Part shown: in pieces, positions 16,151 through 54,481 of the stretch
Position numbering within the stretch: the first letter of the stretch is position 1
How the letters are laid out: every line of letters starts with the position of its first letter
NCBI GenBank assembly: GCA_963745025.1
Contig: CAVUWD010000011.1
Span: forward strand, 224,001-288,000
DNA length: 64,000 nucleotides
Direction: 5' to 3'
Origin: an uncultured delta proteobacterium
GTDB lineage: Bacteria; Desulfobacterota; Binatia; JACPRU01
The notes under the pieces: generated by a model
Databases searched by the model: none
Told to the model about the DNA's origin: nothing
What the model saw: only the letters and a program-made list of their open reading frames with translations
Translations under genes and position numbers: made by a program

Positions 16151-16204
16151 GGCTAGTAACTATAAGCGGCCGAGTTGTATCATAAGACGGGCGATCTCGG
16201 ACGC
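16151..16204 (-). repeat. dif-like + oriIS-like element, copy 1
   Basis: Minus strand GCGTCCGAGAT-CGCCCGTC-TTATGATACAACT-CGGCCGCTTATAGTTACTAGCC. Confidence 0.65.
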
Positions 16205-16388
16205 TACGGATTCCTCCTTACCGCCCGCTTTTACGGGTGCGGATAAGGCGCCCGTCAAGCTGGACGACGCCCGGACGAGCCAGGCGTGGGCGATCAAGCG
16301 GACGTCGGCGGCCCAACGCCCCGTCGAGGCCGGGCCTTGGCGATCGCCCAGCTGCTCGCGTACGAGTCGCTCGGCCTCTGTCCGCGCT

Positions 16389-16665
16389 GGCAAGGGGCGA
16401 GGTACTATGGCATCGGAGTGCGGTGGCGCGGCTCCTCGACGTGACGCTGCACGACCGCCCGGCTCTCCTCACGATCTGCCGCGTCGGCCCGATGCCCCAG
16501 TTCACAGGCGTCACCTTCGCGCTGCCGCATGTGGTGAGCGGCCGCGGCGCCGGCGCGACGGTTGCGCCGCGGCTGAACAACGTCGAACAGAAGTCCCTGC
16601 AGGAGAGCGCGTCTGTCGTGCGCGAGGCGATCGACTCGCTGCAACAGGTGCCCGGCTTCGCGTGA
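16389..16665 (+). pseudogene. L-lactate/malate dehydrogenase C-terminal fragment
   Basis: GKG..YYG/IGSAVARLLDVTLHD...GVTFALPHVV...QESASVVREAI. Confidence 0.7.
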
Positions 16666-16667
16666 CA

Positions 16668-17985
16668 ATGCAACGGCTTCCCACCGAGGAAGACCTGAGC
16701 CGCCCCCCGACGGAGGAGGAGGTGGACCGGCTCCAGGTGACCACACTGCAGTACTATCTGCACGAGACCAACCCGGCCACCGGTCTGATCCGCGACAAGA
16801 CCGACCCCAGCGCCCCCGCCAGCATCGCTGCAGTGGGCCTTGGCTTGGCGAACATCCCGGTCCTCGTCGACCGGGGCGTGATCGCGCGCGAGTTCGCTCC
16901 CGAGGTCGCGCTTCGCGGACTACGCTTCTTCCGCGACAGCCCGCAGGGCCCCGAGCCCGATGCCACGGGCTACCGGGGCTTCTACTACCACTTCCTCGAC
17001 ATGAAGACCGGCCGCCGGGTGTGGAACTGCGAGCTGTCGACGATCGACTCGACCTTCCTGTTCGCCGGGATGCTCACCTGCGCGGCATACTTCGACGCAG
17101 ACACCGCAGAGGAGGCCGAGGTCCGGCGGGTGGCCGACGATCTCTACCGCCGGGCGGACTGGCAGTGGGCGCTAGCCGGCGGTGCGGCCGTCTCCCACGG
17201 CTGGCGGCCCGAAACGGGGTTCATCCTCCACACCTGGACCGGGTACGACGAGGCGCTGCTGATCTACCTGCTCGGCCTCGGCTCACCAACCTTTCCCTTG
17301 CCGCCCGAGAGCTACGCGGCCTACTGCTCGACGTACCAGTGGAAGACGATCTACGACGCGCGAGGTCCTCTACTCGGGGCCGCTGTTCACACACCAGCTC
17401 TCGCACCTCTGGATCGATTTTCGCGGCATCCAGGACGCGTTCATGCGCAGCCACGGCAGCGACTACTTCGAGAACACTCGCCAGGCGACCTACATCCAGC
17501 AGGAATACGCGCGGCGGAACCCGCTCGAGTTCGCCGGCTACGGTGAATACTGCTGGGGCATCACCGCGAGCGACGGCCCCGGCTTCGAGCAGCGGCGCAT
17601 GAACGGCATCGAGCGGAAGTTCTACGGCTACCAGGCCCGCGGCGCGCCTTACGGTCCCGACGACGGGACGGTGTCGCCGTGGGTGGTGGCCGCCTCGCTC
17701 CCCTTCGCCCCGGAGATCGTGATCCCCACGCTGCGCGCCATGGTCGGCATCGACTTCGGGACAACCATTCGGTACGGCTTCTGGCCGTCGTTCAACCCGA
17801 CCTACGCGGTGCCGGACAGCCCGACGGGCTGGTGGATCACCCCCTACCACTTCGGGATCGACCAGGGCCCGGTTAGTCTCATGGTCGAGAACTACCGCAC
17901 CGGTCTCATCTGGAACATCATGCGCCGCTGCCCCTACGTCGTGGCAGGACTGCGGCGGGCGGGCTTCCAGGGCGGTTGGCTCTGA
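16668..17985 (+). CDS. Glucoamylase-like / GH144-like glycoside hydrolase, frameshift near 17360
   Basis: ASIAAVGLGL, GFYYHFLDM, ELSTID, WTGYDEA, PLFTHQLSHLWIDFR, WGITASDGP, GIDQGP across two frames. Confidence 0.85.
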
Positions 17986-18198
17986 AGACGCCCGTTCGCT
18001 ACCACGGCCTCCACTGCGGAAAGGCGATCGTCATACCGTCGGATCGTGGTCTGACGAGCCATCGGGGCGTCGTATCGATAGGCAGCTGAGCGGCACCACG
18101 ATCGAGGAGCCGTTGCGGGGACGGCATCAAGGCAGGCTCTGCAGAAGCTTCTCGTCGATCGGGTGCGAGGGGATAGTCCCTTCGGGCCTCTTCTCGCA

Positions 18199-18258
18199 AG
18201 GGAAACCCGGGGAGGCCAGAAGACGGCGACGATCGGGCTCGGAGCTGCACGGTTAAAC
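18199..18258. repeat. Dispersed non-coding repeat, copy 1 (partner at 29814-29886)
   Basis: AGGGAAACCCGGGGAGRCCAGARGACGGCGA...ACGATCGGRCTCGGAG..TGCRCGGTTAAAC shared by both copies. Confidence 0.8.
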
Positions 18259-18328
18259 CGTTCCGTGAATCTCGGGCTTGCAACGAGCGTCATCAGATGC
18301 GGGAACGCTCGCGCACTTCGCGCAACGG

Positions 18329-18706
18329 CTACTGGTAGGCGTAGAAGTCAATCGCCACGTGTTGTGGGTCGTTCGGATCTACTCGAACGGGAATCACTCT
18401 TTCGGGCTGAAACTGCGGAACATCGAGCCGAGAGATCAGCGCCTTTTTGATCGTTGCGATGTACGGCGCGCGGCCTTCCGTCGTCACTTCGACTCGCAGC
18501 CCGATTACGGGATCGTTGTTGACGGTCATGCCGGTATCCCAGATCTTCAAAATGGTCGCGCGCGCGGGGAGTCCGGTTTGCTGCAACTCCTTCGCATCCG
18601 ACACACCGCTCCAGTTGTCGATCAATCCGCAAGCGACCAAGCTCACCGCCAGCAGCGCGGCAGCCAGTCCGTCAAGGTGTCGAATCGTCTTTCGGTTTGC
18701 CCTCAA
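18329..18706 (-). CDS. Putative lipoprotein
   Basis: LVAC lipobox; ATILKIWDTGMTVNNDP...VRVDPNDP beta-rich domain. Confidence 0.75.
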   Translation of the reverse strand: MRANRKTIRHLDGLAAALLAVSLVACGLIDNWSGVSDAKELQQTGLPARATILKIWDTGMTVNNDPVIGLRVEVTTEGRAPYIATIKKALISRLDVPQFQPERVIPVRVDPNDPQHVAIDFYAYQ

Positions 18707-20059: not shown

Positions 20060-20159
20060 TGCGTGTTCTCCTTTGCGTCGCGAATCTCCCGAGGTCGCGC
20101 ACATCCAGGAATCGCTAGTCTTCTTCCAGCCCGTCCCGCATGGCCCGTCGAACCATCCC

Positions 20160-20486: not shown

Positions 20487-20565
20487 GAGGACAGCTGGGA
20501 TAAGCGGCCGAGTTGTAAAGCCTCCATATCCGACGCTGCCCAAACACGAGACGCCCCGTTTCTAG
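20487..20565 (-). repeat. dif-like + oriIS-like element, copy 2
   Basis: Near-identical to 22957-23036; minus strand GCGTCGGATAT-GGAGGCT-TTACAACT-CGGCCGCTTATCCCAGCTGTCC. Confidence 0.75.
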
Positions 20566-22823: not shown

Positions 22824-22956
22824 CTGCGTGTCCACTTTTTCGGGGAAAGATCATTCGCTGGGACGATTGGGTTTGGCGTGGATCACTGTGGAGTCATATC
22901 AGGAATCCCAAATCACCTTTGTTTTATCGGACATAACCTTTTCGACGAATTGTGGA

Positions 22957-23036
22957 GAGGATAGCTGGGATAAGCGGCCGACTGACGTAAAGCCTCAATA
23001 TCCGACGCTGCCCAAACACGAGACGCCCCGTTTCTA
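22957..23036 (-). repeat. dif-like + oriIS-like element, copy 3
   Basis: Minus strand GCGTCGGATAT-TGAGGCT-TTACGTCAGT-CGGCCGCTTATCCCAGCTATCC. Confidence 0.75.
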
Positions 23037-23045
23037 CGGTTGCGG

Positions 23046-23644
23046 CCGATCTTTCCTACCACCACCTCACCTGAGTTGAGGCCGATGCGCACACCGAACG
23101 GGATGCCGTGCCGCACGCGCACCTCGTTGGCGTATTCGCGCACAGCATCGCGCAGGCGCAGCTCCGCGTAACACGCCCGCTGCGCATGATCCTCGTGCGC
23201 GATCGGCGCCCCGAATAGCGCCATGATGCCGTCGCCGGTGTACTGGTTGATCGTCCCCTCGAAACGGTGAACACCTTCGCCGAGGATCGCGAAGAAGCGA
23301 TCCATGATCTTGTGCCACTCTTCGGGGTCGATCGACTCCGAGAGCTCCATCGACCCCTTCACGTCGGCGAACAGCACAGTCACCTGCTTGCGCTCGCCTT
23401 CGAGGGCGCTGCGCGAGGTGAGGATCTTGTCCGCAAGGTGACGAGGGGTGTAGCTGGCGGGCGACATAGCGGCGCCGCGGTTCGCCACCGAGTCGGTCAG
23501 GGGGGCGCGACACTTGCGACAGAACTTTGCAGCCGGACGGTTACCGGCGGCGCAGCTCGGGCACGCCACCTCCAGAGGTGCGCTGCACTCTTCGCAGTAG
23601 TGTGAATCGGCAAGGTTCTCGGTCTGGTACTTTGAACAGCGCAC
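23046..23644 (-). pseudogene. Double zinc ribbon + class III cyclase, 3' truncated
   Basis: CEECSAPL..CPSC..FCRKC, GERKQVTVLFADVKGS, YTGDG; breaks at EVVVGKIG next to repeat copy 3. Confidence 0.88.
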
Positions 23645-23652
23645 TGCTTTTC

Positions 23653-26334
23653 CTATGCCCGCCCCTTCAGCCGTGCGAGTCGCTTCTCTACCTCGGTCAC
23701 CTGCGGCCGGAGCTCTTCATCACAATCCTTCCAGAGCTCGAGGAAGCGCGAGTAATGGAAGATCGCCTTCTCGCGGTCGTCGAGCTTCTCGTAGATCTCC
23801 GCGCGACGCAGGTGAGACGGCGCGAGATACGCCCGGTCATAGAGCATCGACTCCTCGAGCGAGGCCAACCAGAAGAGCGCGTCTTGGTCGCGCCCCACGG
23901 CGCGCAGCAACTCGGCGCGAAGATACCGTTCATAGGGCCGAGAGAAGAACGCCGATCGAAATGGCGCCTCCCAGGCGATCTCGAGCCGGGTTTCCTCGAG
24001 GATAACGAGCGCTTCGGCCGGCTTCCCGTCGAGCTGCGCCACCTGTGCGCGCAAGCTTCCGGCGAGAGCGCGAGCGACGGCAGCAACGGTCGGTGATTCG
24101 ACGGGTCGCTCGAGCTCTTCGGCGCTACGGAGCGCGGCATCGCGCTCCCCGAGGCGGATGCTGAGAGTTCCAAGGAGGTAGGAGCGCAGTTGAGCGTGAA
24201 TGCGGTCGTGGGGCGAGAACCAGTCTTCGGTCACCTCGCCTACGGGGCTGGCAGGTGGGCTCCAGCGAGTCACTTCGTCGCGAAGCTTCTCGAGCTCCAC
24301 CCGCGGAAGCGGAAGAAATGGTGAGGCCGCGAGGAGCGCTCGGTATTCGAGTCCGATGCTCGGATCGAGATTTGCCGCGGCCTCGAGCTCGACCTGAGCT
24401 GCGTTCCAATGCCCTTTCGTGAGAGCGAGGTGAGCGAGCTGGACGTGGCCGGTCGTCCGCACGGTCGAGGAACGGACGGGCTCGGTCATCAGCCGCGCGA
24501 GCGCCTCGCTGGCAGGCGCATTGTGCAGCATCTGAGCGAGCGGAGCGCCGCCGAGAGCGTAGTCGCTCGCCCGCCGGAGCTCGGCGACGATCCGTTCCTG
24601 ACTCGCCTTGTCGCCGAATTGGAACGCTTGCAACGTCCGAATGACCAGGGCGTAGTCGCTTCGCGAGTCGAGGGCGAGGTAGCGCCCGATCGACGATGAA
24701 AGCGCCGCCCACTTCTCTTCGGCTTCGTCGAGCTGACAGCTGAAGATCGCGGCGTCGAGGCGTCCGGGATCGAGCGAAAGCTCGTGCTCAACCACGTCGC
24801 GAGCTTCCATGACGGAGCGGCCTCGGAAGGGATTCTCAACCGCCAGCGTCCAACTGAGAACTAACCACGCTTCCCAATCGTCTCGGTAAGCGGCCAGGGT
24901 CTCGCGGGCGCGACGTTCGGTCGCGTCGATGTGTCCGTTGATCCAGTCCGAGACCATCTCGACTAGGAGACGATCATGCTCCGACAGGCGATCTTTGAGG
25001 CGCATCGCGTGCGCTATGGCATGGCGCGACGCCTCGGTTTGCTGGGTATATCCCCCAAGCATGTAGGAAAGGCGGTAGTGGGCGAAGGCGAAATCAGGGT
25101 CGGCGGCGACGGCGCGGCGATAGGCTTCGATGGCCTCGGCGATTCGCCCGGCGCGAAAAGCGCTCTCGCCCTCTAAGAAGGACCTCAAGGCGGGAAACGA
25201 GTGCGTGGTCAACGCCGCCACGCGTGCAAGCTGCTCTCCGGGCCGGCTCAAGCGACCGGCGAGAAGCTCGGCCGCCAGCTGGTCGACAAGGTCGAGAAGG
25301 TGACTCGTTTCGCCCTCGGCGTTCGCCTTCGTCACGACGAGCGCTTTCTCGGCATCGTAAATCGATGCCTCGAGCTGCAAACGACCGGAGATCTCCAGGA
25401 CGCTGCCGAGTACGAAGAGACCTGCGCCGAAATGCTTGGCGACTCGCTGTCCGTGTTCGGGGTCGAGCGTCCAGCCGCCTTCGCGCTTGATGAAGCTCAG
25501 CAGCGAGTGCGGGTCCACCTGCCGGAGTTCCTCGGCGCCGTCGAGCTTGGTGCTGAGGAGTGTGACCATCCCTTCGGCGAGGTAGTCGAGATCCTTCCCG
25601 CCGCTGACGGAGAACGGGAAAACGGCCACGGCGGTCGGCGAGGAGGGCGGGAGATGCTCCGCCGATTTCAGACCCGCGACGTAGCGAGAGACGACCGGAT
25701 AGCTGGCGACGATCCCGAGGAGCGCAAGTCCAACCCCAAGGAGCCAGGCGCGGCGGCGCGTCTTCTCTTCGCGTTCCGCGGATACGCGCGCAGCGGGCTC
25801 GGTGGCTGCTCCCTGCTGGCCGTTCCCCGCCAGCGCATAGACTCGGATCGGGCGGTTGACGTTCTTCAGGCTCTTCTCGCCGAGAAAGGTCGCGCGAATC
25901 TCGGGATGATTGCGAATGTCGTCGTAGACCCTTTCGGAGATGCACACGCCCCCGGGCTTCGCCAGCGCGTGAATCCGCGAGGCGATGTTGACTCCGTCCC
26001 CGATGATTCCCCCATTCGACACGACCACGTCGCCGATGTGAATTCCGATCCTCAGGCGTAGATCGGTGTCGCCGCGAAGCGCTTCCTGAATCTCGCGCGC
26101 ACAGCTCACCGCCTCGACCGCGCTGTCGAAGCTCGAGAGGCTGCCGTCGCCCACGTGCTCGATGAGCTTGCCGTTGAACTTCGGGACGAGCCGACCGAGA
26201 AGCGCACGGCTCCGTTCGAGCACCTGCCGCGCCCGCTGCTCATCCTCACCCATGAGGGCCGTGTAGGCCGCGATGTCGGTGAACATGATCGCGGCGAGCT
26301 TTCGGGTTTCGGTGGGCGTTGCTGGAATCGGCAA
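23653..26334 (-). CDS. Class III nucleotidyl cyclase + TM + TolB-N-like + TPR protein
   Basis: RKLAAIMFTDI, GDG, GDGVNIASR; TM helix; AVAVFPF...DYLAEG; TPR-like C-terminus. Confidence 0.88.
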   Translation of the reverse strand: MPIPATPTETRKLAAIMFTDIAAYTALMGEDEQRARQVLERSRALLGRLVPKFNGKLIEHVGDGSLSSFDSAVEAVSCAREIQEALRGDTDLRLRIGIHIGDVVVSNGGIIGDGVNIASRIHALAKPGGVCISERVYDDIRNHPEIRATFLGEKSLKNVNRPIRVYALAGNGQQGAATEPAARVSAEREEKTRRRAWLLGVGLALLGIVASYPVVSRYVAGLKSAEHLPPSSPTAVAVFPFSVSGGKDLDYLAEGMVTLLSTKLDGAEELRQVDPHSLLSFIKREGGWTLDPEHGQRVAKHFGAGLFVLGSVLEISGRLQLEASIYDAEKALVVTKANAEGETSHLLDLVDQLAAELLAGRLSRPGEQLARVAALTTHSFPALRSFLEGESAFRAGRIAEAIEAYRRAVAADPDFAFAHYRLSYMLGGYTQQTEASRHAIAHAMRLKDRLSEHDRLLVEMVSDWINGHIDATERRARETLAAYRDDWEAWLVLSWTLAVENPFRGRSVMEARDVVEHELSLDPGRLDAAIFSCQLDEAEEKWAALSSSIGRYLALDSRSDYALVIRTLQAFQFGDKASQERIVAELRRASDYALGGAPLAQMLHNAPASEALARLMTEPVRSSTVRTTGHVQLAHLALTKGHWNAAQVELEAAANLDPSIGLEYRALLAASPFLPLPRVELEKLRDEVTRWSPPASPVGEVTEDWFSPHDRIHAQLRSYLLGTLSIRLGERDAALRSAEELERPVESPTVAAVARALAGSLRAQVAQLDGKPAEALVILEETRLEIAWEAPFRSAFFSRPYERYLRAELLRAVGRDQDALFWLASLEESMLYDRAYLAPSHLRRAEIYEKLDDREKAIFHYSRFLELWKDCDEELRPQVTEVEKRLARLKGRA

Positions 26335-30090: not shown

Positions 30091-30354
30091 GAGAGGCCGG
30101 ATGTCGGCCGATACGAGCGCGCTTGAGGACGCGAGCACGCACGCGGGTCAGCGGCGGGTCGACGGCCGACTACGTGCTTCGTGACGGGGCCAAACGCCTC
30201 GATCGCGTGCAGCTTGTGACTTCTCGCCCCGGCTTCTGGTCAGCTGCAGTCGGCGCGCCCGACACCATCATCTACTTCACGCCAACCAAGAGCACGCGTG
30301 GTCGACGTTCGGCTCACGAGAAGATGCGGCGCTTCGGGATCGCGTGATCTCGCG

Positions 30355-31209
30355 TTAGCGCCGCAGCGCGAAGATCGGGCGCGCGCCGCGCAGACCCTTG
30401 AGCTCGTGCTCGCCGCGCGAGTCGAGCGACGAGGCCCGAGCCGTCGAGCAGGTCGAGGGTGGTGCCGGAGACGAACACCTCGCCGGCGCCGGCGAGCGCG
30501 GCGACGCGCGCGGCAGCGTGGACCGCCGACGCCGCGCGCCTGGCCGCCGACGATCTCGACTTCGCTGGTGTGGATGCCGACGCGCACGCGGATGCCGAGG
30601 TCGGCGACCGCGGGATCCATCGAGGCGGCCGCGCTCACCGCCTTGGCCGCGCCGTCGAAGAGCGCGAGGAAGCCGTCGCCGGCCGCGTCGATCTCGCGGC
30701 CGCGGAAGCGGTCGATCGCCGCGCGGATGCGCACGTTGTGCTCGCGCAGCAGCTCGGCCCACGCGTGGTCGCCGAGGCGTTCGAGCGTCGCCGTCGAGTC
30801 GACGATGTCGCTGAAGAGGATCGTCGCGAGCACGCGCTCGCCGAGCTCCTCCGGCGACAGTCCGAACGCGTGCGCGCTGGCGAACTCGACCGAGTCCCAC
30901 GGCTCGTCGCCGACCACCCAGGCATCGTGTCCGGGCGGGATCTCGTAGGCGTCGCCCGGCCCGATCGTGAGCATCGGTGCCGTCGTCCATGCGCACCTGG
31001 AGCGAGCCCGAGATCGTGTAGCCGAGGTGGCGGTGCTGGCAGGAGCGCGTGCCGGTGATCGGCGCGACGTCCTTCGACCAGCGCCAGCCCGGCTGGAACA
31101 CGAAGCGGCCGATCGCGATCTCGTCGAGCGAGACGATGTCGAGTCGCCCGGTCGGGAAGGTGCGCACCGGTCGGGCGTTTGCGAAGCTCTTGCGCTGCAG
31201 GCGACGCAC
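30355..31209 (-). CDS. Cupin + class III cyclase fusion, frameshifted near 30975 and 30520
   Basis: QPGWRWS...HLGY...PPGHDAWVVG cupin, then RVLATILFSDIVDS, GDG, VHAAAR, ELKG. Confidence 0.8.
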   Translation of the reverse strand: MRRLQRKSFANARPVRTFPTGRLDIVSLDEIAIGRFVFQPGWRWSKDVAPITGTRSCQHRHLGYTISGSLQVRMDDGTDAHDRAGRRLRDPARTRCLGGRRRAVGLGRVRQRARVRTVAGGARRARARDDPLQRHRRLDGDARTPRRPRVGRAAARAQRAHPRGDRPLPRPRDRRGRRRLPRALRRRGQGGERGRLDGSRGRRPRHPRARRHPHQRSRDRRRPGARRRRSTLPRASPRSPAPARCSSPAPPSTCSTARASSLDSRGEHELKGLRGARPIFALRR

Positions 31210-31349
31210 GAGGGCATCGTGCGCTGCGCCGCGGAGCGTCGCAAGGGATGCGCCTGGCGCAGTCCGCCGCCTACCCGAGCGTCTCCGCCGGCAGCCACAG
31301 CGACACCACCGCGCCGCTCGAATCGGGTGATAGAGCGAGAAGTGCCGAC

Positions 31350-31400
31350 GGTTCCGAGATCGCAGGTTATGTCGACATCGGCCGTTTGTAGCCGCTTCTG
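31350..31400 (+). repeat. dif-like + oriIS-like element, copy 4 (inverted)
   Basis: GGTTCCGAGAT-CGCAGG-TTATGTCGACA-TCGGCCGTTTGTAGCCGCT. Confidence 0.65.
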
Positions 31401-39161: not shown

Positions 39162-39275
39162 GGATAGGCGGATAGGCGGGACAAGCGGCCTGGTTGACGT
39201 AATCGCTCCATATCCGACGCCTGCCGAACTCACGAGAAACCCGTTTTTACGGCACGCATAAGGAACCTGTCCACC
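39162..39275 (-). repeat. dif-like + oriIS-like element, copy 5
   Basis: Minus strand GCGTCGGATAT-GGAGCGA-TTACGTCAACC-AGGCCGCTTGTCCCGCCTATCC, downstream of the IS91 transposase stop. Confidence 0.75.
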
Positions 39276-39384: not shown

Positions 39385-39570
39385 TCAACCGGCGCCGAAG
39401 TCGAAGAACCCCGCCGTCTCCGGAGGCGGCCGCGCGGCCGCAGGCCGCGGGCACTCGGTAGCGATACCGAGGTGAGAGAGGATCTTCCTGATCACCGCCG
39501 GATCCTCGATGGTGGCGAGTAGACGCAGCCGCCCGCCGCACTCGGGGCAGGAAAGAACGTCGATCTCCGC
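39385..39570 (-). pseudogene. IS91-family (HUH Y2) transposase C-terminal remnant
   Basis: IDVLSCPECGGRLRLLATIEDPAVIRKILSHLG...ARPPP signature tail. Confidence 0.85.
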
Positions 39571-39743
39571 CGTGGCATGCATCATGCGTCGATCGAGGTG
39601 GGGTCGAGCTCGGCGCAAAAAAAGAAAGGGCAGGAGCGGCAGCGAGCCGGAGGCACTGGAGCCTCGGGGCTGCTGCCGCTGAAGGGCGGGAACAACGCGT
39701 AGGGATGGACTACGGGGGATGAAGAGAAAACTGCCGATGCTAC

Positions 39744-40320
39744 TCACGCGGGCAGCGCGATCTCCCGGGACCGCTCGAGCCTGCTGATCGTCTTGCTTCG
39801 CCGCCGATCCGACACGCGGGCGTAGACGAGGCTCGACTCGATGTTTCGATGACCGAGGTGGTCCTGAACGAAGTCGATCGGCTCGCCTGCGTCGAGAAGG
39901 TGGGTCGCGCAGCTGTGCCTGAGACAATGCACGTGCCTCCGATTCGGCGGGAGATCGGCGGCGGTGGCGTAGCGGGTGAAGAGGGCCTGTATCCAGCGCT
40001 TCGAGAGCCGGCCCTGTCTGACCGACGAAGAGCGCCGCATTGTCATCGGTCCGGGTACGGAGGTATCGCCGGAGAATCGCCACGAGACGCCGAAAGAGCG
40101 GCTTCTCTCCAGAGTAGCCGTTCTTCACACGCCAGACGCGGATCGTGCGGCGTTCGAAGTCGAGGTCCTCTCGCTGAAGCAGGCAAGCCTCGGAGACTCT
40201 GAGGCCGTAGAGGTAGATCGTCGTGAAGAGCGCTTTATCTCGAGGGTTCCTGATGACCGAGAAGAACGCTCGGACCTGGTCTTGGCGGAGGTACCTCGGG
40301 AGGTTCCACTTCACGATCAT
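39744..40320 (-). CDS. Small tyrosine recombinase (catalytic domain only), frameshift near 40020
   Basis: GLRVSE, K, HCLRHSCAT, LGHRNIESSLVY; RBS GGGAGG. Confidence 0.88.
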
Positions 40321-40322
40321 GA

Positions 40323-40798
40323 ACCGCCTCCCTTCTTCGATAGAAGGAGGCCCTGCGGTCGGGAGTCTCCGCGGTGGCTGGAGCGCCCCCTGCGGTCCCG
40401 TAAGCGCCGGCGTCTCCTTCGGCGGCAGGAAGCTGCGCAGCACGAGTGTCTGCGGAAGGGCCGTGCGCGGCGGCGCGGGCGGCAATGACTTCGGCTTTTC
40501 TGGCAGGCGCTGCGGCGGCAGCGGCTGGAGCTCGGCGTCCGGGATCTCCTCGAGGTCGGCGTCGCAGCGCGTCGTCCTCAAGATCCGCCCCGCCTCGTCG
40601 TCGATCTTCATCTTCTGGCAGACGTAGATCCAGGTATCGACCAGGTCGACCTGAGCCCAGTAGCGGTCGGCCACCTGGTAGAGCTCGTTCGAGACGATCT
40701 GGACGACGAGATCCCCGACTGCGAACCGGGGCGGCTCAGCACGAGCCACGCCATTCCGCGACGACCCGTCCCGTGGGATCGTCGATCCGATAGGACAT
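40323..40798 (-). CDS. Hypothetical protein, frameshifted
   Basis: RBS AGGAGG + ATG at 40798; continues as PRFAVGDLV in another frame. Confidence 0.5.
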
Positions 40799-40820
40799 AG
40801 GAACCTCCTGTCGTTTTTCT

Positions 40821-42073
40821 CTAAGAGCCTCATCGGCATCACGACGAACTTCAGGCTCTCGTCCGCGGACTCGATGACCATCGGCGACACGTCGTCCTCG
40901 AGCTGGATGACGACCCGCTCCTCCTTGATGAAGCGGAGCGCGTCGAGCAGGTAGTTCGCGTTCAGGCCGATCGAGACCTCGCCGGAGGCCCCGAAGCACG
41001 GCAGCGCCCGGGTGAACTCGCCGAGGTCGGGATGCTGCTTGGAGAGCGTCAGCTTGTCGTCCTTCACCTCGAGCTTCACGCCCTTGGCTTTGTCGGTCGA
41101 GAACGGCAGCGAGGAGCTTAGCGCCTCCATGAAGGCTCTACGGTCGACCACGATGTGGTGCTTGCGCTTCTTGGGGATCACCTGGTCGTAGTCGGGGAAC
41201 GTGCCCTCGACGTAGCGCGACGTGAGCTCGTAGTTGGCGATCCGGAAGGAGCAGCCGTTCTCGTGGAAGTGGCCGACGATCGGCGCTCTTGGTCGCCGCG
41301 GCGATGTCGTCGACGAGCTCGACGACCTTCCTCGGGATCAGGAAGTCGCCTTCGATGGTCGCTCCCGGGATCCTCATCACATGAAGCCGGTGCCCATCGG
41401 TCGCCACCGCCAGGTTCTTGCAGAAGCGAAGGTAGACGCCGCTCATGTTGATCCGCGTCTCGTCGACACTGACTGCGGGCAGCACCGGCTCGAGGCTCGG
41501 GAGCTCGGCGATCTTGGCCGGGCCCTTCATCCGGTCCTTGAAGCCTGACAGCTCCGGGAACTCCTTCGCGTCGTGGCCGATGACGACCGCGTCGTCGATG
41601 ACGACGTTGAAGGGAGCCTTCTCGTGGTTGGCGCTCCGGATCGCGACTCCCGGGGACTGTCCGCGCTTTACGCAGTCATACAGGAGCTTCGCGGGAATCG
41701 ACGCGGCCAGGGGCTTCACCTCCGGGATGAAGACCCGGAGCGCGATGTCGAGGTCCGTGGCGAGCAGCACGCCGTTGTCGAAAAGGACGTCCGCGAGAAT
41801 CGCGATCGTGTTCTGTTTCGCCGCGACGCGGGCTAGGAACTTGAGCGCCAGGGCGAGCGGCTTCCGCGGGATCTCGCCGGCGGCGAGCGCGGGAGGAGCG
41901 GCCCTTTCCGCCTTGGCGGGCACGCTGCGCTTCGGCTTGACGAGCGGCGACGGGCCGAGACGTGCGCCGCTGACGGCTGGTGCCGGCGTCTCGGTGACCG
42001 TCGCCGGCGGCAGAGAAGGCTCTGCGGTTGCCACCGCGGACTCGCCGCGGGTGGCGGGTAGGTTGTCGGACAT
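40821..42073 (-). CDS. DNA polymerase III beta sliding-clamp homolog, frameshift near 41290
   Basis: ATDLDI, EFP, VATDGHRL, EGTFPDYDQVIP, IGLNANYLLDAL and FVVMPMRL motifs. Confidence 0.88.
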
Positions 42074-42130
42074 GGGCACTCCCTTGATTTTGAGGTTGAG
42101 TGCCGAGTGGAGAGCACTCGGCACTGAGAC

Positions 42131-42718
42131 TTACTTCTTCAGGCGCCAGGCGTTCTGCTGGAACCAGGCCTTGACCGCCTCCGCGCCCATGATCGACACG
42201 GGCTGCACCTCGGCGATCCATCCGCCCTCGCCGCAGCCGAAGCACTGTTCGGTGAAGTGCTCGATGTCCTCCGCGCCCTGTTCCCTGGCGAAGCGCTCGA
42301 GGGCCTCTTCGGCTTCCTTCTCGGTGGGATGGGCCTCGCAGAACGCCCACTCGAAGTGCGTCACGCGCTCGTAGACGTGCACGTGCGGATTGCTCAACCC
42401 CGCGCACGAGTCGCACTCGTCACCATCGTCATCGAACTCCGTGTGGTAGTGGATCGCCGTGGCGAGGAACCACTCCGCGCGCTCGCCGCCGGCGGGGAGG
42501 ACGGGCTCCGCCCGCGGCGCCGGCGGATTCGGCGCATCGGCGAATCGCGGCTGGACCGGCGCGGTCGGCGTCTTCCAGGGCGCTGGGCCGAACCCCCCGC
42601 GACGGAATCCGACCTCGCCGTCTCGACGCGGCTCGTATGACACCGGCGAGCCGCCTTCGCGACGCATGTGTCCCGGTACGAGCGAGCCCATGCGCGGAGC
42701 GGGTAGGTTGTGCTTCAT
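42131..42718 (-). CDS. Hypothetical protein (Cys/His-rich, acidic)
   Basis: RBS AAGGAG; intact ORF in operon. Confidence 0.65.
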   Translation of the reverse strand: MKHNLPAPRMGSLVPGHMRREGGSPVSYEPRRDGEVGFRRGGFGPAPWKTPTAPVQPRFADAPNPPAPRAEPVLPAGGERAEWFLATAIHYHTEFDDDGDECDSCAGLSNPHVHVYERVTHFEWAFCEAHPTEKEAEEALERFAREQGAEDIEHFTEQCFGCGEGGWIAEVQPVSIMGAEAVKAWFQQNAWRLKK

Positions 42719-42731
42719 CGTGTTCTCCTTC

Positions 42732-43175
42732 TCACCACGCGCCCGTGTCGACGAAGCTCCAGTGCCGGTCGGCGCCGAGGATCACGTGGTCGAGCACGCG
42801 GATGCCGAGGATCTCGCCGGCCTCGCGAAGGCGCCTTGTGAGCTCGGTGTCCTCCGCGGAAGGCTCGGGTTCGCCACTCGGGTGGTTATGCGCGAGAATC
42901 ACGGCCGCGGCGGCGGCGTGAACCGCTGGCCGGAAGACCTCGCGCGGATGACAGAGCGATGCCGTCAGCGTCCCGACCGAGATCACGCGGTAGCCGCCCG
43001 GCTTCACGCGATGCTTCGCGTTCAGAAGCAGCGTGACGAAGACCTCCTGGTCGAGGCCTCCGATCCGCGGCCGGAGGGCCGCGGCGACCTCGTTCGAGCC
43101 GCGAAGCACGCCGATGATCTCCGGCGGCGGCTCGCCGTCACGAATGATCTCGACGCGCGGGAGTGTCGGTTTCAT
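42732..43175 (-). CDS. radC: RadC/JAB domain protein
   Basis: GTLTASLCHPREVF, AHNHPSGEPEPSAED, LDHVILG; RBS GGAGG. Confidence 0.93.
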   Translation of the reverse strand: MKPTLPRVEIIRDGEPPPEIIGVLRGSNEVAAALRPRIGGLDQEVFVTLLLNAKHRVKPGGYRVISVGTLTASLCHPREVFRPAVHAAAAAVILAHNHPSGEPEPSAEDTELTRRLREAGEILGIRVLDHVILGADRHWSFVDTGAW

Positions 43176-43438
43176 GTTCCTCCTAGACCGGCCGTAGATG
43201 CGGCCGGAACTTGATGACGTGCGCGCCCCGCCGGCGTGGGACCGTCTTGAAGATCCAGGCAACGAGGGCCCGGACGAGCATCCAGAGGATCTCGCTCGCG
43301 AGCGGCCGCAGCCACCTCGAACCGCAGGTTCCACGCCGCATCCACAGCACGCGCGAACGCGCCCCCTGGTTCCCAGCCCCGCTTCATCCCGCCCCACACC
43401 TTCTGCATGTTCTCCCCGAAGTAGTTCCGCCCCATCAT
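43172..43438 (-). CDS. Hypothetical protein
   Basis: RBS GGAGG; translationally coupled. Confidence 0.55.
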   Translation of the reverse strand: MMGRNYFGENMQKVWGGMKRGWEPGGAFARAVDAAWNLRFEVAAAARERDPLDARPGPRCLDLQDGPTPAGRARHQVPAASTAGLGGT

Positions 43439-44195
43439 CACGCCTCCCTCCGGATCGCCTCGCGGATCTCCTCGAGGTCTCTCCCGTCGTCGCGCTCCTC
43501 GCGGAGCATCTTCGCCTTGAGCTCCGCAGCGCAGTGATTGGTGCCGCTCTGGTCGGCCACCATGAAGCGGCAGTTCTCGCACGGGGTGCGATAGAGAAGT
43601 TTGCACGCCCAGAACTGCGTCGCCCGGTCGAGCACGGTGCGGTTGTCGTACACGGTGTACGGACCGACGCGGCCGAGCTTGCGCATGTCCGCTCCCGAGA
43701 CGTCCTCTCCGCCGCGCGACTCGGTCGCATCGGATGCAGACCGAGCCGTCGTCCACCACGGCGGGTCGTCTGCCATGCGCGACGTCGGCCGGAAGGCACC
43801 GAAGCCGGCGGTAGACCCATTCCCGGGTCCACCCTGGTAATAGCCGCCGCCTCCTCGCCGGAAGCCGGACTCTTTCTTCCCCTTCGTCCAGAGATCCGGC
43901 GCCTGGTCGTAGGCCTGCTGGTTCGCGATCCCCTTCGTGAACAGGTGATAGAAGCCGCGGTAGACCACGACCGTGAAGAGCGCCCGGAAGAAGTGCGCGA
44001 GTCCCCACGCTGCCTCGTCGCGGACCCACTGGCCGAAGCCCTTCCCTGCCGTGGCCGTCTCCGCGTTGATCTTGGGCTCGGCCGTTGCGACGTCTGGCCG
44101 CGTTGGCCCGGCGAGCTCGAGTAGCCGCCTCCGGACCTGGTCGGCTCGATCACGATGACCGGCGGCGCGCTGCCGTATGGATCCTTGAAGCTCAT
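43438..44195 (-). CDS. Hypothetical protein with C-terminal Cys cluster, frameshift near 44100
   Basis: RBS GGAGGAG; WAC...PCENC...HC. Confidence 0.55.
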
Positions 44196-48315: not shown

Positions 48316-48339
48316 GAGGCTGACTACGATAAGTGCCGG
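48316..48339 (-). repeat. Partial copy of the oriIS-like tail
   Basis: GAGGCTGACTACGATAAGTGCCGG vs GAGGATAACCACGACAAGCGGCCG at 54429. Confidence 0.4.
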
Positions 48340-51894: not shown

Positions 51895-52020
51895 TTATTC
51901 GCTCACCTCGTCGGCGCCCGCGAGCAGCATCGGCGGCACGTCGAGGCCGAGCGCCTTCGCGGACTTGAGGTTGACCACCAAGGTCAACTGCATCACCGGC
52001 AGGGCGGCAGGTTTGGCCCA
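51895..52020 (-). pseudogene. ABC transporter substrate-binding protein C-terminal remnant
   Basis: [26 protein letters not shown]. Confidence 0.8.
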
Positions 52021-52052
52021 ATGCCGGCTAGCGCCGAGAATGTGCGAACTTG

Positions 52053-52352
52053 TCAGAGTGACCCGTATATGGCCGCCTCGAAGGCCCGAAACAGGTTGAC
52101 TGCCAGGCGATCAAAGAAGGGAAAGATCTGCGTCATGAAGCCGCCGGTCACGCCCTTGGTCTGGTCGATCCAGAAGTAGCAGTTGCTCAGCCCAGCCCAG
52201 GACAGGCTGCCGGGTGAACGGCCTTCCGGTGTCCGCTCCGTATTGATCAAGAAACTCAGGCCCCACTTTTGCTTCATTCCAGGGAAGAAGTCGGCGTCGT
52301 TGGAATACTCCGGTATGGCCGTCTTCAACTCGACGAAATCGATATCGCCCAT
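52053..52352 (-). pseudogene. Serine hydrolase/beta-lactamase family C-terminal remnant
   Basis: GRSPGSLSWAGLSNCYFWID...TQIFPF. Confidence 0.8.
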
Positions 52353-52611
52353 TGCCTCGCTCGACAGCAGCTTCCAGGCGTTCGACTCGGACAGCGACGC
52401 CGACCTGGCCTACGCGCAGAGCTACGCGATGGTGGAGCTGATGCGCGAGTGCGGCGGAGATGGGGCTCTCGACACCGCGCTCGCCGCGTTCGCGAGTGGA
52501 GCGGACACACCCACCGCCCTGGCGCGCGCCTGTCACCGTGAGGAGGTGACTGGAAAAGACCTGCTCGACTTCCTCGAGCGCCGGCTGGCCCAGCGCGGCG
52601 CCAGGCCGTGA
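52345..52611 (+). pseudogene. Peptidase MA-like C-terminal remnant
   Basis: SLDSSF...LAYAQSYAMVE. Confidence 0.55.
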
Positions 52612-53060
52612 AGCCGGAGCTCCTTCGCCGCTGCCTTTCAGCTCGAGAGCTTCATCCCGATGTCGCCGGCCGGCTCGGCTCCCGCCTTACGTCGTTCGGC
52701 GTGGCGGCTCCGCCTCTAAAGAGGCTGCGCCTGGTCGCTCTCGCCGGCAGGGCTCACCCGCACCACCAGCTGAACCGCGCTGAAGCCGGCCGACTCGTAC
52801 AGTCCGGCGAAAACGCCTCCCCCCAGCCAGAGGTTGATCGGCTCGGCGTGGAAGCGCGTACCGAGGGTCAGCTCGACCCATCCGTAGAGCATTCAGGTCT
52901 CGTGCGGATACGGGTCGGGCTGGGACAACATGCCCAAGGTCACGCCAGCCGCGGCCCAGAGGGCGAAGCGCCACCAGCGGAAGACGTCGACTCCCAGCTG
53001 GTCTGCCGCCCAAAGCCAACGCTCGTACCGAGCCCGCGGAAGCAAGATTGAGCGGCGCGG

Positions 53061-53462
53061 TCAGTTGCTCCGCGAGCCACCGCCGCCGCGCACGTCGATT
53101 CCGCGCTGCTCGAGGAGCTTCAGCAGCATCTCGTTCGTCTCGATGATTTCTTGGAGCTTCTTCTCGATCGCCAAGGCGTTCGCCTCCATCCAACAACGAA
53201 GCGCGCTGAGTGCCGCATGAGCAGTCTGCGGATCCATCTTTCGCGGAGGCTCGCCTTCCGCGAGGTCAGCCTTGGTGTCTCCGACGACTAGCGAATTGTA
53301 GATCGCATTCGCGGCCGCCTTCACGTCCTCGGCCGTGCGAAGGTAGCGCCAGCCGCGGGGCTTCCCGCTCTTGCGCGCCTTCCTGGATCGGAGACCGTCG
53401 CTACCCCCAGGGGTCCCCGCGCCATCCTGCGTATTCTCGGCCGTCCAGTTGTTTTCCTTCAT
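53061..53462 (-). CDS. Hypothetical protein (phage/satellite-like)
   Basis: RBS GGAGG; LRTAEDV...IEKKLQEI helical pattern. Confidence 0.55.
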   Translation of the reverse strand: MKENNWTAENTQDGAGTPGGSDGLRSRKARKSGKPRGWRYLRTAEDVKAAANAIYNSLVVGDTKADLAEGEPPRKMDPQTAHAALSALRCWMEANALAIEKKLQEIIETNEMLLKLLEQRGIDVRGGGGSRSN

Positions 53463-53522
53463 CCCTACCTCCGCGTCTTCCCCTCGCATTCCAGGACATT
53501 CACCCGCCGAGCACCGTCCTTC

Positions 53523-53574
53523 GGGTCCGATAGTGGACCCTATGTCGAAATCACGCTTTTGTGCGGGCCATAAC
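53523..53574 (+). repeat. dif-like + oriIS-like element, copy 6, at island right edge
   Basis: GGGTCCGATAG-TGGACC-CTATGTCGAAA-TCACGCTTTTGTGCGGGCCATAAC. Confidence 0.55.
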
Positions 53575-53578
53575 AACT

Positions 53579-54367
53579 CTAGCGGCCGTTGAAGATCACC
53601 TGCTGCTTCTTGGCGAACGCCGCGACGCCGTTCTTGAAGTCCTCGGTGTGGCCGCTCGCGGCGATGGCCTGAGCCTCGAGCTCCATCTGGGTCTCGAGAC
53701 TCTCCTGCGTCGACTGGTGGAAGAGGAGCTTGGCCCGGCCGAAGGCGAGCGTCGGCCCCCGGGCGAGCTCTTTCGCCAGGGTCGCCAGGGCTCCGGGGAA
53801 CTCGGCGTCCGGATGGACGCGGTTGACGAGCCCCCAATCCATCGCCTCGCGCGCCGAAAGCACGCGATTCGTGTAGTGGAGCTCGAGCGCCCGGCGCAAC
53901 CCGATCATCCGCGGCAGGAAATACGACGAGGAGCCGTCGGGCGACGCGGCGATCTTCGAGTACGCCATCGTGAACTTCGCGGACTCCGCCGCGACCACAA
54001 GATCCCCGGCGAGCGCGAGGCTCATGCCCCCACCCGCCGCCACACCGTTGACGGCCATGATGACGGGCTTGGCCGTGCGCGCCAGCCGCGAGACCGCGCC
54101 GTGCAGGTAGGTCGTCAGCTCCTTGATCACGATCCCGATGCGGTCCGCATTGTCGTTGAAGTCCTTGACGTCGCCGCCGGCGCAAAACGCCTTCCCTGCG
54201 CCCGTGATGACGATGCATCGCACGGCGCGGTCCTCATCGGCCTCGAGCGTGGCGCGGAAGAGATCGCCGGCCAGCGCCAGGTTCAGGGCATTGTAGGCCT
54301 CGGGACGATTCATGGTGATCGTGGCGACGGCGTCCTTGACCTCGTAGCGGATGGTGTCGTGATGCAT
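53579..54367 (-). CDS. Enoyl-CoA hydratase/isomerase
   Basis: AFCAGGD, AVNGVAAGGG, PDGSSSYFLPR. Confidence 0.95.
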   Translation of the reverse strand: MHHDTIRYEVKDAVATITMNRPEAYNALNLALAGDLFRATLEADEDRAVRCIVITGAGKAFCAGGDVKDFNDNADRIGIVIKELTTYLHGAVSRLARTAKPVIMAVNGVAAGGGMSLALAGDLVVAAESAKFTMAYSKIAASPDGSSSYFLPRMIGLRRALELHYTNRVLSAREAMDWGLVNRVHPDAEFPGALATLAKELARGPTLAFGRAKLLFHQSTQESLETQMELEAQAIAASGHTEDFKNGVAAFAKKQQVIFNGR

Positions 54368-54428
54368 GGCTCTCTCCTCGTTGGATTAGCGGCGGTCGCC
54401 GACGCGGTGCAGCTTGAGCAGGTGGGTG

Positions 54429-54481
54429 GAGGATAACCACGACAAGCGGCCGAAATTTATTTAGTCTCCCATATAACCGCC
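54429..54481 (-). repeat. dif-like + oriIS-like element, copy 7 (degenerate)
   Basis: Minus strand GGCGGTTATAT-GGGAGA-CTAAATAAATT-TCGGCCGCTTGTCGTGGTTATCC. Confidence 0.5.

Follow-up and report, generated by a model that had tools for sequence, protein, structure and literature searches.

The window, a stretch of DNA of 64,000 nucleotides, contains a repeat unit of about 85 bp in four full copies, one diverged copy and one right half. Copies were found by profile searches and membership was judged with a covariance model, R1, which was run with filters off and had the copies at 39170, 16151 and 31318 as seeds. The copy at 16151-16236 (minus strand; nhmmer; R1 E = 3.1e-13, seed) represents a variant B. 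It has the left arm GCGTCCGAGAT, an 8-bp spacer, a right arm and a tail ending in CTAGCC, preceded by an inverted repeat and a variable stretch. A copy on contig C3 has nearly the same outer flank (98.8% identity over 754 bp) but a different inner flank. The copy at 20489-20564 (minus strand; R1 E = 5.9e-18, not a seed) belongs to the standard type, but its right arm has lost 3 bases. It shares its outer flank with three other copies (115-320 bp), and the inner flanks of all four differ. A further standard copy is located at 22958-23039 (minus strand; profile search; R1 E = 2.5e-21), with the left arm at 23008-22998, the spacer at 22997-22991, the right arm at 22990-22980 and the tail at 22979-22958. 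Its inner boundary cuts the 3' side of a gene for a double-zinc-ribbon adenylate/guanylate cyclase (22913-23644, minus strand). Pfam recognised DZR and positions 6-121 of the 183 positions of Guanylate_cyc; thus, the truncated cyclase predicted at about 23046 is real.

The diverged copy at 31318-31396 (plus strand; R1 seed; recovered independently at E = 7.1e-5 in a genome-wide iterated nhmmer search) retains both arms and the beginning of the tail. After ...GCT the last tail bases are replaced by an alternative end, TCTGTGAAGCGGC, which also follows a unit in genome G001. The fourth full copy, with the spacer GGAGCGA, is at 39170-39252 (minus strand; profile search; R1 seed). On the same strand a C-terminal remnant of an IS91-family transposase of 68 codons is present at 39388-39591 (translation; tblastn against PLSDB), and a broken gene for a small Xer-like tyrosine recombinase at 39772-40371 (Pfam, NCBIfam, comparison with paralogues). 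The last member, at 54431-54474 (minus strand), is a right half with a decayed right arm and a tail (18.6 bits, E = 1.1e-4, model positions 45-88, not a seed). The left part beside it is degenerate up to about 54512. This half-unit is positioned where mosaic DNA meets DNA collinear with a sister genome; collinearity with G001:C9 starts at 54599. This places the edge of the island at about 54.5-54.6 kb and not at 53575 as proposed.

The original prediction had described an element of about 50 bp at seven places and a partial tail at 48316. Most of these places were confirmed, the length was not. By R1, two of the seven proposed copies are not true members, nor is the partial tail. The candidate at 53523-53569 (plus strand) was rejected, as 4.9 bits with E = 2.1 is chance level and nhmmer gave no match; the tail at 48316 had no match with R1. 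The copy claimed at 54429 fell out of the iterated nhmmer list, and only its right half, described above, could be upheld.

Outside the window the unit is abundant. A profile built from five minus-strand copies of the window gave 39 genomic matches at E < 1e-7, its five seeds included, and 54 at E < 1e-3. Four iterations of nhmmer resulted in 71 copies genome-wide (inclusion E ≤ 1e-4) and 86 rows at E < 0.01. This is a repeat family far beyond chance. About 25 copies are 94-100% identical, and an alignment of 39 copies has sharp boundaries at both ends. A short inverted repeat, CCG(T)...(A)CGG, is followed by about 18 variable bases, a two-arm core and a tail. The core of 28-30 bp comprises an 11-bp XerC-side arm, a spacer of 6-8 bp and an 11-bp XerD-side arm, and the tail of 22-25 bp reads ...GGCCGCTTRT-N5-CTATCC; the predicted layout of arm, spacer, arm and tail was correct. 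Among 27 representatives with less than 85% identity the left arm is the best conserved block inside the unit (1.57 bits per position), followed by the right arm (1.10), the spacer (0.72) and the upstream variable stretch (0.46). Hence, the arms are better conserved than the spacer in the larger alignment as well. In diverged variants left and right part types occur in mixed combinations. Solo right-end pieces exist in several length classes, 85 bp, about 340 bp and about 700 bp, and 21 of 27 partial copies in the iterated nhmmer list keep the whole two-arm core.

The arms were compared with the dif site of the host. This site, ACGTCCGATAA-GATATA-TTATGTAAACT at G000:C16:507608-507635, is unique in the genome. 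The genes on its two sides converge, and the maximum of the cumulative GC skew is about 38 kb away. With at most 3 mismatches allowed, 14 of 41 genomes of the class have exactly one copy of it, and a reversed-pattern control gave 0. The consensus arms of the unit match host dif at 8/11 and 10/11 positions, the single representatives at a median of 8 and 8 of 11. Thirteen places in the genome have at most 5 mismatches to dif in the 22 arm positions: dif itself, 11 places inside units and one unit-derived fragment at C14:282747. A shuffled genome had none. The core of a unit in genome G006 (locus L042) has 4/22 mismatches. In contrast, four IS loci which bear a recombinase and an ISCR2-type locus of E. 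coli have background likeness only (at least 8-9/22 mismatches). On the side of the enzymes, the host has a XerC gene (336.6 bits, above the curated cut-off) and a XerD-like protein with 310 bits, i.e. below the XerD cut-off of 329.6 and above that of the tyrosine recombinase subfamily. The similarity of unit and dif which had been anticipated is strong.

The second anticipated link, to IS91-family genes, was also borne out. The transposase tail noticed earlier next to the copy at 39170-39252 was confirmed; the unit lies 135 bp downstream of its end. Its peptide matched at least 5000 PLSDB records in the tblastn search, and the features among the matches listed include 'IS91 family transposase'. 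Two more units, at C17:53850 and C16:838304, follow similar remnants at a distance of 178-187 bp, so that three units of this genome have a remnant 135-187 bp upstream. At L042, a full unit follows a full-length yet frameshifted IS91-type transposase frame at a distance of about 190 bp, and the 556 bp before this frame contain no recombinase gene. By our own tally 10 of the 39 aligned copies share the same IS-internal bases immediately upstream of the unit. An intact IS which encodes both recombinase and transposase (L038) has this right arm and tail at its end, in line with an IS91 origin. The order of genes at L042 and the remnants at the window and two other loci argue that the unit is the oriIS end of an IS91-family element. 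Together with the arm match this supports, at the level of sequence, the prediction of a dif-like site joined to an IS91-type origin tail.

The small recombinase gene has intact paralogues at C17:44901-45476 and C6:500317-500892. The intact form has 191 amino acids and consists of the catalytic domain only; a core-binding domain is absent. Against the XerD, XerC and XerA models it reaches 99.6-136.7 bits. The C6 paralogue is 68% identical and has no unit nearby, and the relatives at L008 and L009 are likewise without one. Of the 'local recombinase' invoked originally the Xer-like nature remains, but the gene is broken and its intact relatives occur away from units. Probably the small recombinase is outside the IS proper.

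Units are found at synteny breakpoints, as had been proposed. In three of six solitary units tested homology with sister genomes ends exactly at the inner boundary and in two of six it ends 25-108 bp from the outer boundary. One gene is cut by different unit variants at positions 238 bp apart in G000 and G001. Flanks reassort: one outer flank is combined with four different inner flanks and one inner flank with different outer flanks. Segments common to different loci measure 115-754 bp and end away from units. Because they do not span from unit to unit, a clean gene-cassette structure is absent. Arrays of units are local, with one orientation within each array and a spacing of 1.2-16 kb; the genes in between run in both directions and often are fragments. 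For none of the six solitary units was an empty site with both flanks collinear found in G001 or G006, nor was one found within G000. Simple insertion of the 85-bp unit is therefore not demonstrated.

We propose, with a probability of roughly 0.55 for the explanation as a whole, that the repeat is the right-end (oriIS) module of a transposase-only IS91-family rolling-circle IS, present mostly as solo copies of about 85 bp. One-ended or abortive rolling-circle transposition might have left the solo units behind as short right-end products, the transposase having acted in trans, a process documented experimentally for IS801. Host XerC/XerD or a Xer-like enzyme would then act on the imitation of dif, which would allow units to recombine with one another. 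In this way DNA circles could be resolved, excised or integrated, and recombination between units may help to build same-orientation arrays and mosaic islands. DNA at the units could thus be open to shuffling by the Xer recombinases of the host, and the island may have been assembled by insertion and recombination of units. Contributions of Xer, of transposase and of homologous recombination between the roughly 25 near-identical copies to the mosaic would look alike in the sequence. If the units are usable by Xer, host dimer-resolution enzymes could rearrange DNA at IS91 end repeats.

Several observations count against this interpretation. Symmetry between the two arms is poor, and the spacer of the standard variant is 7 bp long. 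The alignment of 39 copies contains no conserved target tetranucleotide after the tail beyond (A/G)TCC within it. Among truncated copies the left side is missing in 13 and the right side in 10; with both about equally common, one-ended transposition alone would not explain them. No unit in the genome-wide list is at or next to host dif. Since the ends of shared segments are found away from units, breakpoints are not confined to units. Only L042 pairs a full-length transposase gene with a full unit. In G000 the transposase domain is at most a 145-codon fragment, and none of 11 unit-bearing metagenome contigs carries a transposase. In public runs, all of short contigs, no junctions at units were found. 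Finally, an intact IS with recombinase and transposase (L038; Pfam) ends in the same right arm and tail without the left arm; the right arm may accordingly serve the transposase.

This last point leads to a different explanation. Units may be IS91 right-end fragments and nothing else, with arms read by the HUH transposase and a likeness to dif devoid of function; scrambled flanks and same-orientation arrays then would stem from RecA-dependent recombination, duplication and deletion among 85-bp repeats. We consider this rather unlikely, yet worth serious attention. About 25 copies at such identity suffice for homologous exchange, which would break synteny exactly at unit boundaries, and shared segments that stop elsewhere agree with it, as does the end of L038. 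Moreover, in the available parts of their report the authors of the IS801 work ascribe most genomic IS801 fragments to reorganisation rather than transposition (PMC3189936). What speaks against such an explanation is the left arm. It is the best conserved internal block, matches the XerC-side arm of the host at 8-10 of 11 positions at the correct distance of 6-8 bp from the right arm, and is missing in the recombinase-encoding IS types. Taking the right arm as given, a binomial estimate of our own puts the chance of the left-arm match at about 0.006. In addition, left and right parts are mixed even in variants too diverged for homologous exchange.

An enzyme of mobile elements instead of host XerCD might use the site, either the 191-amino-acid Xer-like protein or IS91-family tyrosine recombinases in trans. 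The small gene is directly upstream of remnant and unit both in the window and at C17:44901-45476, its product resembles XerD, XerC and XerA, and sister genomes hold IS91-family elements with a recombinase of their own; the tyrosine recombinases of IS91 elements belong to an integron-like subgroup according to the accessible part of one study (bioRxiv 10.1101/542381). However, the two loci are close paralogues (93% identical) and so represent one event, and the gene lacks a nearby unit on C6, at L008 and at L009. Considering also the missing core-binding domain, the missing two-arm core in recombinase-encoding IS types and arms which copy the dif of the host, we regard such an enzyme as improbable. 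Even less probable is that units are attachment sites of discrete cassettes, attC- or pdif-like, and that the island was built one cassette at a time. Single orientation and spacing within arrays, reassorting flanks and the half-unit at the right island edge of the window would fit. Against this, the segments common to arrays stop short of the next unit, the inter-unit genes are fragmented and of mixed direction, six folds of the unit gave no single-strand hairpin (z between -1.1 and +1.5) and orientation is uniform and not alternating as in pdif modules.

For IS801, right-end fragments that transpose (229, 360 and 679 nt) were trapped experimentally (PMC3189936), and for IS91 the last 82 bp are enough to serve as origin end (PMC3189936, PMC13181058), as far as the available text of these reports goes. 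Similarly, our units are solo oriIS-end pieces without a transposase gene near rearranged genes. Unlike these miniatures they are shorter, far more numerous (71-86), truncated about equally on the left and right, and no ter-like tetranucleotide is demonstrable at the left end. An imitation of dif is not reported for IS801 or IS91 in the accessible portions of the same sources (PMC3189936, PMC13181058). Recombinase-encoding IS91 members in sister genomes are of the same family, and one of them, L038, even shares right arm and tail. They are distinguished by the absent left arm, and the unit-bearing L042 in turn has no recombinase gene upstream of its transposase. In the CR2-sul2 unit the inferred end of an ISCR2 element coincides in part with a tyrosine recombinase core site, and this recombinase, the GIsul2 integrase, excises and integrates the element, as described in the available account (PMC9376610). 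The overlap of an IS91-like end with such a site is the common feature; there, the 19-bp att site of an island integrase is on the terIS side, here host dif is copied on the oriIS side.

Integron attC sites also form same-orientation arrays of recombination-site-like repeats between variable genes. The units differ by the lack of a folded hairpin and by multi-gene, mixed-orientation content in between, and no integron integrase was found beside unit arrays. On Acinetobacter plasmids many pdif sites outside the terminus border variable DNA, and XerCD is presumed to shuffle them, according to the accessible parts of two papers (PMC7399989, PMC12907356). The units are comparable in being numerous dif-like sites outside the terminus next to variable DNA. 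The orientation of pdif sites alternates, and the modules between them are discrete. The units are direct, fused to an IS91 origin tail and without shared site-to-site segments, and in these respects they depart from pdif modules. With IMEXs such as CTX-phi and TLC-phi, as these are portrayed in the available literature, the units share the imitation of host dif by mobile DNA which encodes no integrase. In CTX-phi, too, a rolling-circle HUH protein is combined with Xer. The chromosomal dif is where IMEXs integrate, whereas the units are dispersed with none at dif, and their carrier is an IS end and not a phage or island; in the strict sense they therefore are not IMEXs. By sequence, then, the element would seem to combine two known kinds, an IS91 right-end miniature and an IMEX-like dif mimic.

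Among the eight places in the window named by the original prediction, the five minus-strand copies gave an alignment of about 85 bp; both plus-strand copies and a partial tail aligned poorly. A profile built from these five was searched over the whole source genome (5.65 Mb, 20 contigs). At E<1e-7 it returned 39 places, including its five seeds; relaxing the threshold to E<1e-3 raised the number to 54. Four rounds of iteration brought the list to 71 copies (inclusion at E<=1e-4), or 86 rows when everything at E<0.01 was counted. A strict pattern search retrieved only two copies in the source genome and none in seven relatives; this pattern was too strict. In the alignment of 39 copies, similarity began at CCGTAGAAAC and ended directly after CTATCC(TC), and both flanks were unrelated. 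The repeat, initially put at about 50 bp, thus has an alignable length of about 85 bp and sharp boundaries. The window was searched with a sequence-only covariance model made from 23 diverse copies, with filters off. Units were located on the minus strand at 22959-23039, 20489-20564, 39170-39252 and 16151-16236, the last two being model seeds, and on the plus strand at 31318-31396, a further seed which the iterated profile found independently (E 7e-5). At 54431-54474 (minus strand) only the right half of a unit was detected (E 1.1e-4). The corresponding copy at 54429 had been a seed of the first profile and was lost from the iterated list; its remainder was unsupported. In the same window search the claimed copy at 53523 reached an E-value of 2.1 and the claimed tail at 48316 had no match. 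The 85-bp family is real, and these two members had to be dropped.

The model search detected units in six of the seven other genomes of the family and in seven of the 143 other genomes of the class. Units were also present on 11 metagenome contigs, none of which carried an IS91 transposase at E<1e-5; consequently, these contigs provided neither a new full-length element nor a left end. A query of the unit against PLSDB gave no match. In the source assembly, contigs C3 and C4 begin inside or at a unit (C3:1-81, C4:14-96), and C3:1-400 is a duplicate of C4:17587-18070. Because the assembly breaks at unit repeats, the copy numbers are lower bounds.

Block conservation was determined on 27 representatives (<85% identity) reduced from the 71 copies. 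Starting at the inner boundary, the unit has a short inverted repeat (consensus CCGTAAAAACGGG, 1.55 bits/position), a variable stretch of 18 bases (0.46 bits/position), a left arm (GCGTCCGAGAT, 1.57), a spacer of seven model columns, i.e. 6-8 bases in the copies (0.72), a right arm (TTATGTCAACT, 1.10) and a tail which ends at the outer boundary. The tail comprises a first part (CGGCCGCTTGT, 1.44), five variable bases (0.86) and the end CTATCCT (1.70). Two 11-bp arms with 6-8 bp between them constitute the two-arm architecture of dif, the chromosome dimer-resolution site for XerC/XerD. Arms no more conserved than the spacer had been named beforehand as a refuting outcome; both arms were ahead of it. 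Six single-strand DNA folds, covering both strands, had z-scores of -1.08 to +1.45, no better than shuffles. This indicated that the unit forms no attC-like hairpin and is no obvious RNA: a reading as integron attC was ruled out, and the same folds speak against a structured RNA.

Most probably the unit is an IS91-family origin end which survives as solo copies; we put the probability at about 0.85. As predicted, the C-terminal end of a transposase gene is left upstream of the 39162 copy, on the minus strand. A 68-residue piece of this remnant matches plasmid IS91-family transposases (at least 5000 matches; annotations include 'IS91 family transposase'). Like remnants are located 178-187 bp upstream of the units at C17:53850 and C16:838304, so that three units of the source genome have a transposase remnant 135-187 bp upstream in the same orientation. 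Identical bases directly upstream of the unit were kept in 10 of the 39 aligned copies. The only Y2_Tnp domain in the source genome was a 145-codon fragment. Across the family, five of eight genomes had the domain; at four places the open frame measured 390-411 codons. Locus L042 of the sister genome G006 has a full-length, frameshifted transposase frame with an IS91-type zinc-finger region, a Y2 region and the same C-terminus; about 190 bp downstream of it there is a full unit. The 556 bp further upstream of this frame contained no recombinase gene, and the left end of the element was not definable from its one copy. Four other loci hold IS91-family elements in which a tyrosine recombinase gene precedes the transposase gene; for L033 and L038 the two domains were also verified with Pfam. 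At L038 the transposase is intact. About 320 bp past its stop codon a long palindrome is followed by the right arm and the tail of the unit, and a piece of exactly this type of end occurs in the source genome at C17:35722. This subterminal palindrome upstream of the right arm is longer than the inverted repeat at the inner end of the unit, which has only 3-4 bp. The two-arm site thus accompanies the frameshifted gene of L042 and is lacking at the four recombinase-bearing loci, L038 having the right arm only. The transposase linkage and the ends of L042 and L038 indicate that right arm and tail form the terminal part of oriIS, the origin or right end, in this clade. As judged by sequence, the entire 85-bp unit is the origin end of a transposase-only IS91 type.

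In its place and its border the unit agrees with an oriIS: it comes after the 3' end of a Y2 HUH transposase gene, in the same orientation, and its outer boundary is precise and carries a conserved terminal motif. For IS91, the last 82 bp are enough as an origin end (PMC13181058), and for IS801, right-end fragments of 229, 360 and 679 nt are described as transposition products trapped in the natural host (PMC3189936). The copies examined here have length classes of 85 bp (the majority), about 340 bp and about 700 bp; the latter two keep 252-618 bp of IS interior. Among the 86 rows, 59 were full, 13 were without the left side, 10 without the right and four without both, and the complete two-arm core was kept in 21 of the 27 partial copies. 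This tally of left-less versus right-less copies counted against a purely one-ended origin, as did the tetranucleotides. In the 39-copy alignment no ter-like tetranucleotide was demonstrable at the left end of the unit, the bases following CTATCCTC had no consensus and no target tetranucleotide could be made out after the tail. Known members have tetranucleotide targets beside the origin end, namely GTTC, CTTG and GTCC, the last being the target word of IS1294b (PMC13181058). Two copies, at window 31318 and at C2:79737 of the sister genome G001, diverge directly after ...GCT, which suggested the final (A/G)TCC of the tail as a target-like word. Possibly it is a target-like tetranucleotide comparable to GTCC of IS1294b; this is a lead, not a result. 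On a Trichlorobacter plasmid, CCTATCC follows an IS91-family transposase at a distance of about 240 bp and is a candidate end of that element.

To what extent does the core resemble the dif site of its host? Two places in the genome were identified by a match to the inner palindrome that dif-type sites have. One of them, ACGTCCGATAA-GATATA-TTATGTAAACT at C16:507608-507635, is unique in the genome. It is located between convergent genes with ordinary genes on either side; the maximum of the cumulative GC skew on this 1.14-Mb contig is about 38 kb away. With up to three mismatches it was found exactly once in 14 of 41 class genomes from several families and never twice; the reversed pattern as a control was found in none of the 41. 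We have taken this site as the host dif. The genome encodes XerC (C14:117775-118641; NCBIfam 336.6 bits, cut-off 335.15) and a XerD-like protein (C20:235034-235891), which at 310 bits was below the XerD cut-off of 329.6 and above that of the tyrosine recombinase subfamily. The consensus arms of the unit match dif at 8/11 and 10/11 positions (median over the 27 representatives, 8 and 8), and the predicted likeness to host dif was thus confirmed. Allowing up to 5 of 22 arm mismatches and a spacer of 6-8 bp, 13 places were retrieved: dif itself, 11 inside units and C14:282747, which continues into the start of the tail and hence is a unit fragment. All 12 places other than dif are therefore unit-derived, and the same search of a shuffled genome yielded none. 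By our own binomial estimate the chance of such a match in an 85-bp element is about 4e-5.

The unit at L042 has four mismatches to the dif arms. Three of the four recombinase-bearing loci have at least nine, i.e. background, and L038 has the right arm only; an E. coli ISCR2-type locus had at least eight mismatches against the E. coli arms. Across these sequences dif likeness is not a general IS91 feature. The dif-imitating type is without a recombinase gene and the recombinase types are without dif imitation (one locus versus four). On balance, we lean slightly towards the view that the two-arm core deliberately imitates the host dif and serves Xer-type recombination.

The units form arrays of predominantly one orientation: 10 of 11 on C17, six of seven on C4, all six at C16:825-843 kb and five of six in the window. 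Between them are genes and gene fragments of mixed orientations, including many double-zinc-ribbon cyclase/AAA_16/TPR genes, a MetE-like gene, an HTH gene and dehydrogenases. On C16 the units have no orientation switch at dif; a replication-strand bias was unsupported. Six solitary units were compared with the sister genomes G001 and G006. Units had been predicted to sit at breakpoints, and this was corroborated. Homology ended exactly at the inner boundary in three (L015, L018 and, by coordinates only, L020) and 25-108 bp from the outer boundary in two (L016, L017); L022 was uninformative, and in none of the six did homology extend across the whole unit. The gene cut at L018 is also cut in G001, 238 bp further along; there, too, the cut coincides exactly with the inner boundary of a unit, which belongs to another variant. 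Some 40 bp from the break at L016, G001 carries a diverged unit that points the opposite way. From 54599 onward the window is collinear with contig C9 of G001, and 44-54.5 kb is a patchwork from three other G001 contigs with the half unit at 54431 at its edge. A half unit thus does mark the right island edge, at about 54.5-54.6 kb and not at 53575. The left 14 kb of the window (1-14000) had no match at E<=1e-40 in G001, a genome of the same genus which is 82% complete; the codon usage there is native-looking and the absence may be an assembly gap.

Flanks were reassorted around the units. Four copies have a common outer flank (115-320 bp) and four different inner flanks; two type-B copies, a unit variant, have 754 bp of outer flank in common and differ inside, and the copies with transposase remnants have a common inner flank and different outer flanks. 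The first 100 bp of the common outer flank were found only beside units. Diverged variants mix left and right part types, e.g. a type-B left part with two different right parts. These patterns fit recombination at or within units. Homologous exchange among the approximately 25 copies which are 94-100% identical would generate the same pattern for the standard type. Segments common between loci end away from the units, which argues against clean cassettes. A search of the source genome for places where the left and right flanks of any of the 71 copies adjoin directly revealed no empty site. For the gene cut at C19:349901 the missing half, 1200 bp of continuation in G001, was unmatched in the source genome, and four public read runs contained no joint at a unit (short contigs, at most 0.29 of sampled words). 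That the island was built by Xer-type recombination at units is in our estimate doubtful.

Several other elements are present in the neighbourhood. A gene string at window 39385-44195 (minus strand) recurs at C17:43304-45476 and C6:498501-500892 and at the extracted loci L008 and L009. It encodes, in this order, a RadC-like JAB protein, a protein resembling the beta clamp of DNA polymerase III, a 239-aa product unmatched in Pfam and a 191-aa tyrosine recombinase, which consists of the catalytic domain only and has its best NCBIfam scores on XerA, XerC and XerD models. In related MAGs the RadC-like/clamp/recombinase string occurs with no unit nearby and looks like part of a separate integrative element. 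The double-zinc-ribbon adenylate/guanylate cyclase, AAA_16 and TPR genes are a large paralogous family (window 22913-26334 and 30240-31298; L001:4006-8116). Many copies are truncated, and several begin 300-580 bp downstream of a unit. About 170 bp at L016:4513-4690 (C16:1105012-1105189) have more than 40 matches at 78-91% in each of G001 and G006; they may belong to the conserved zinc-ribbon N-terminus of the cyclases or represent a repeat family of their own. A 1.3-kb segment at window 16670-17998, with three copies at 83-86% in G001 and ORFs with a weak Glycoamylase match only, is probably another mobile element. At C17:47573-50556 a 2.57-kb insertion, probably a different insertion sequence, splits a MetE-like segment about 100 bp after a unit, and 14 bases are repeated at both its sides. 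Two tandem 39-bp copies (82% identity) are located at window 34573-34650 within a long minus-strand ORF.

How might dif-imitating right-end units operate? Conceivably they are a gene-shuffling platform which uses two borrowed activities, a scheme we consider unlikely. A rolling-circle transposase acting in trans would start at one unit and stop at its neighbour, and the intervening segment would be released as a circle bearing one unit. Host XerCD would then insert the circle into whichever resident unit has a spacer that matches. Like integron cassettes, arrays would extend in a single orientation, with no need of a dedicated integrase. IS91 relatives would have two alternative strategies, either to encode a tyrosine recombinase or to copy the host dif. 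If the imitation works, no smaller passenger of the Xer system than this IS end would be known, and HUH rolling-circle transposition and XerCD recombination would be linked outside filamentous phages. It would also offer a concrete, testable explanation for the tyrosine recombinases of some IS91-family elements, and would account for the hypervariable same-orientation arrays in this uncultured lineage. If the imitation is inert, a well-defined, high-copy family of IS91 miniatures which marks rearrangement points is left.

Among known systems, the unit works like the right-end miniatures of IS91 and IS801, and its position and boundary are those of an oriIS. The core looks like an IMEX attachment site; however, integration at dif with hybrid sites, which defines IMEXs, was not found, and on the dif contig the closest unit is about 52 kb off. 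pdif modules are discrete and bounded by dif-like sites in alternating orientation. In contrast, the arrays here have direct orientation and common segments do not run from site to site. The original observation was confirmed in part, and its interpretation likewise has partial support. Integron attC sites differ from the unit by their folded hairpin; moreover, at E<=1e-20 the XerD model has just four matches in the genome, none of which adjoins the start of an array. In the literature searched, which did not extend to subscription journals and ISfinder/TnPedia, no work linking IS91/ISCR ends with dif or Xer was found. The tyrosine recombinases of IS91 elements have been grouped with integron integrases (bioRxiv 10.1101/542381). 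The nearest experimental precedent for an IS91-like end which doubles as a tyrosine-recombinase site is CR2-sul2, where terIS, the end opposite to the origin, and the att core of the GIsul2 integrase overlap (PMC9376610).
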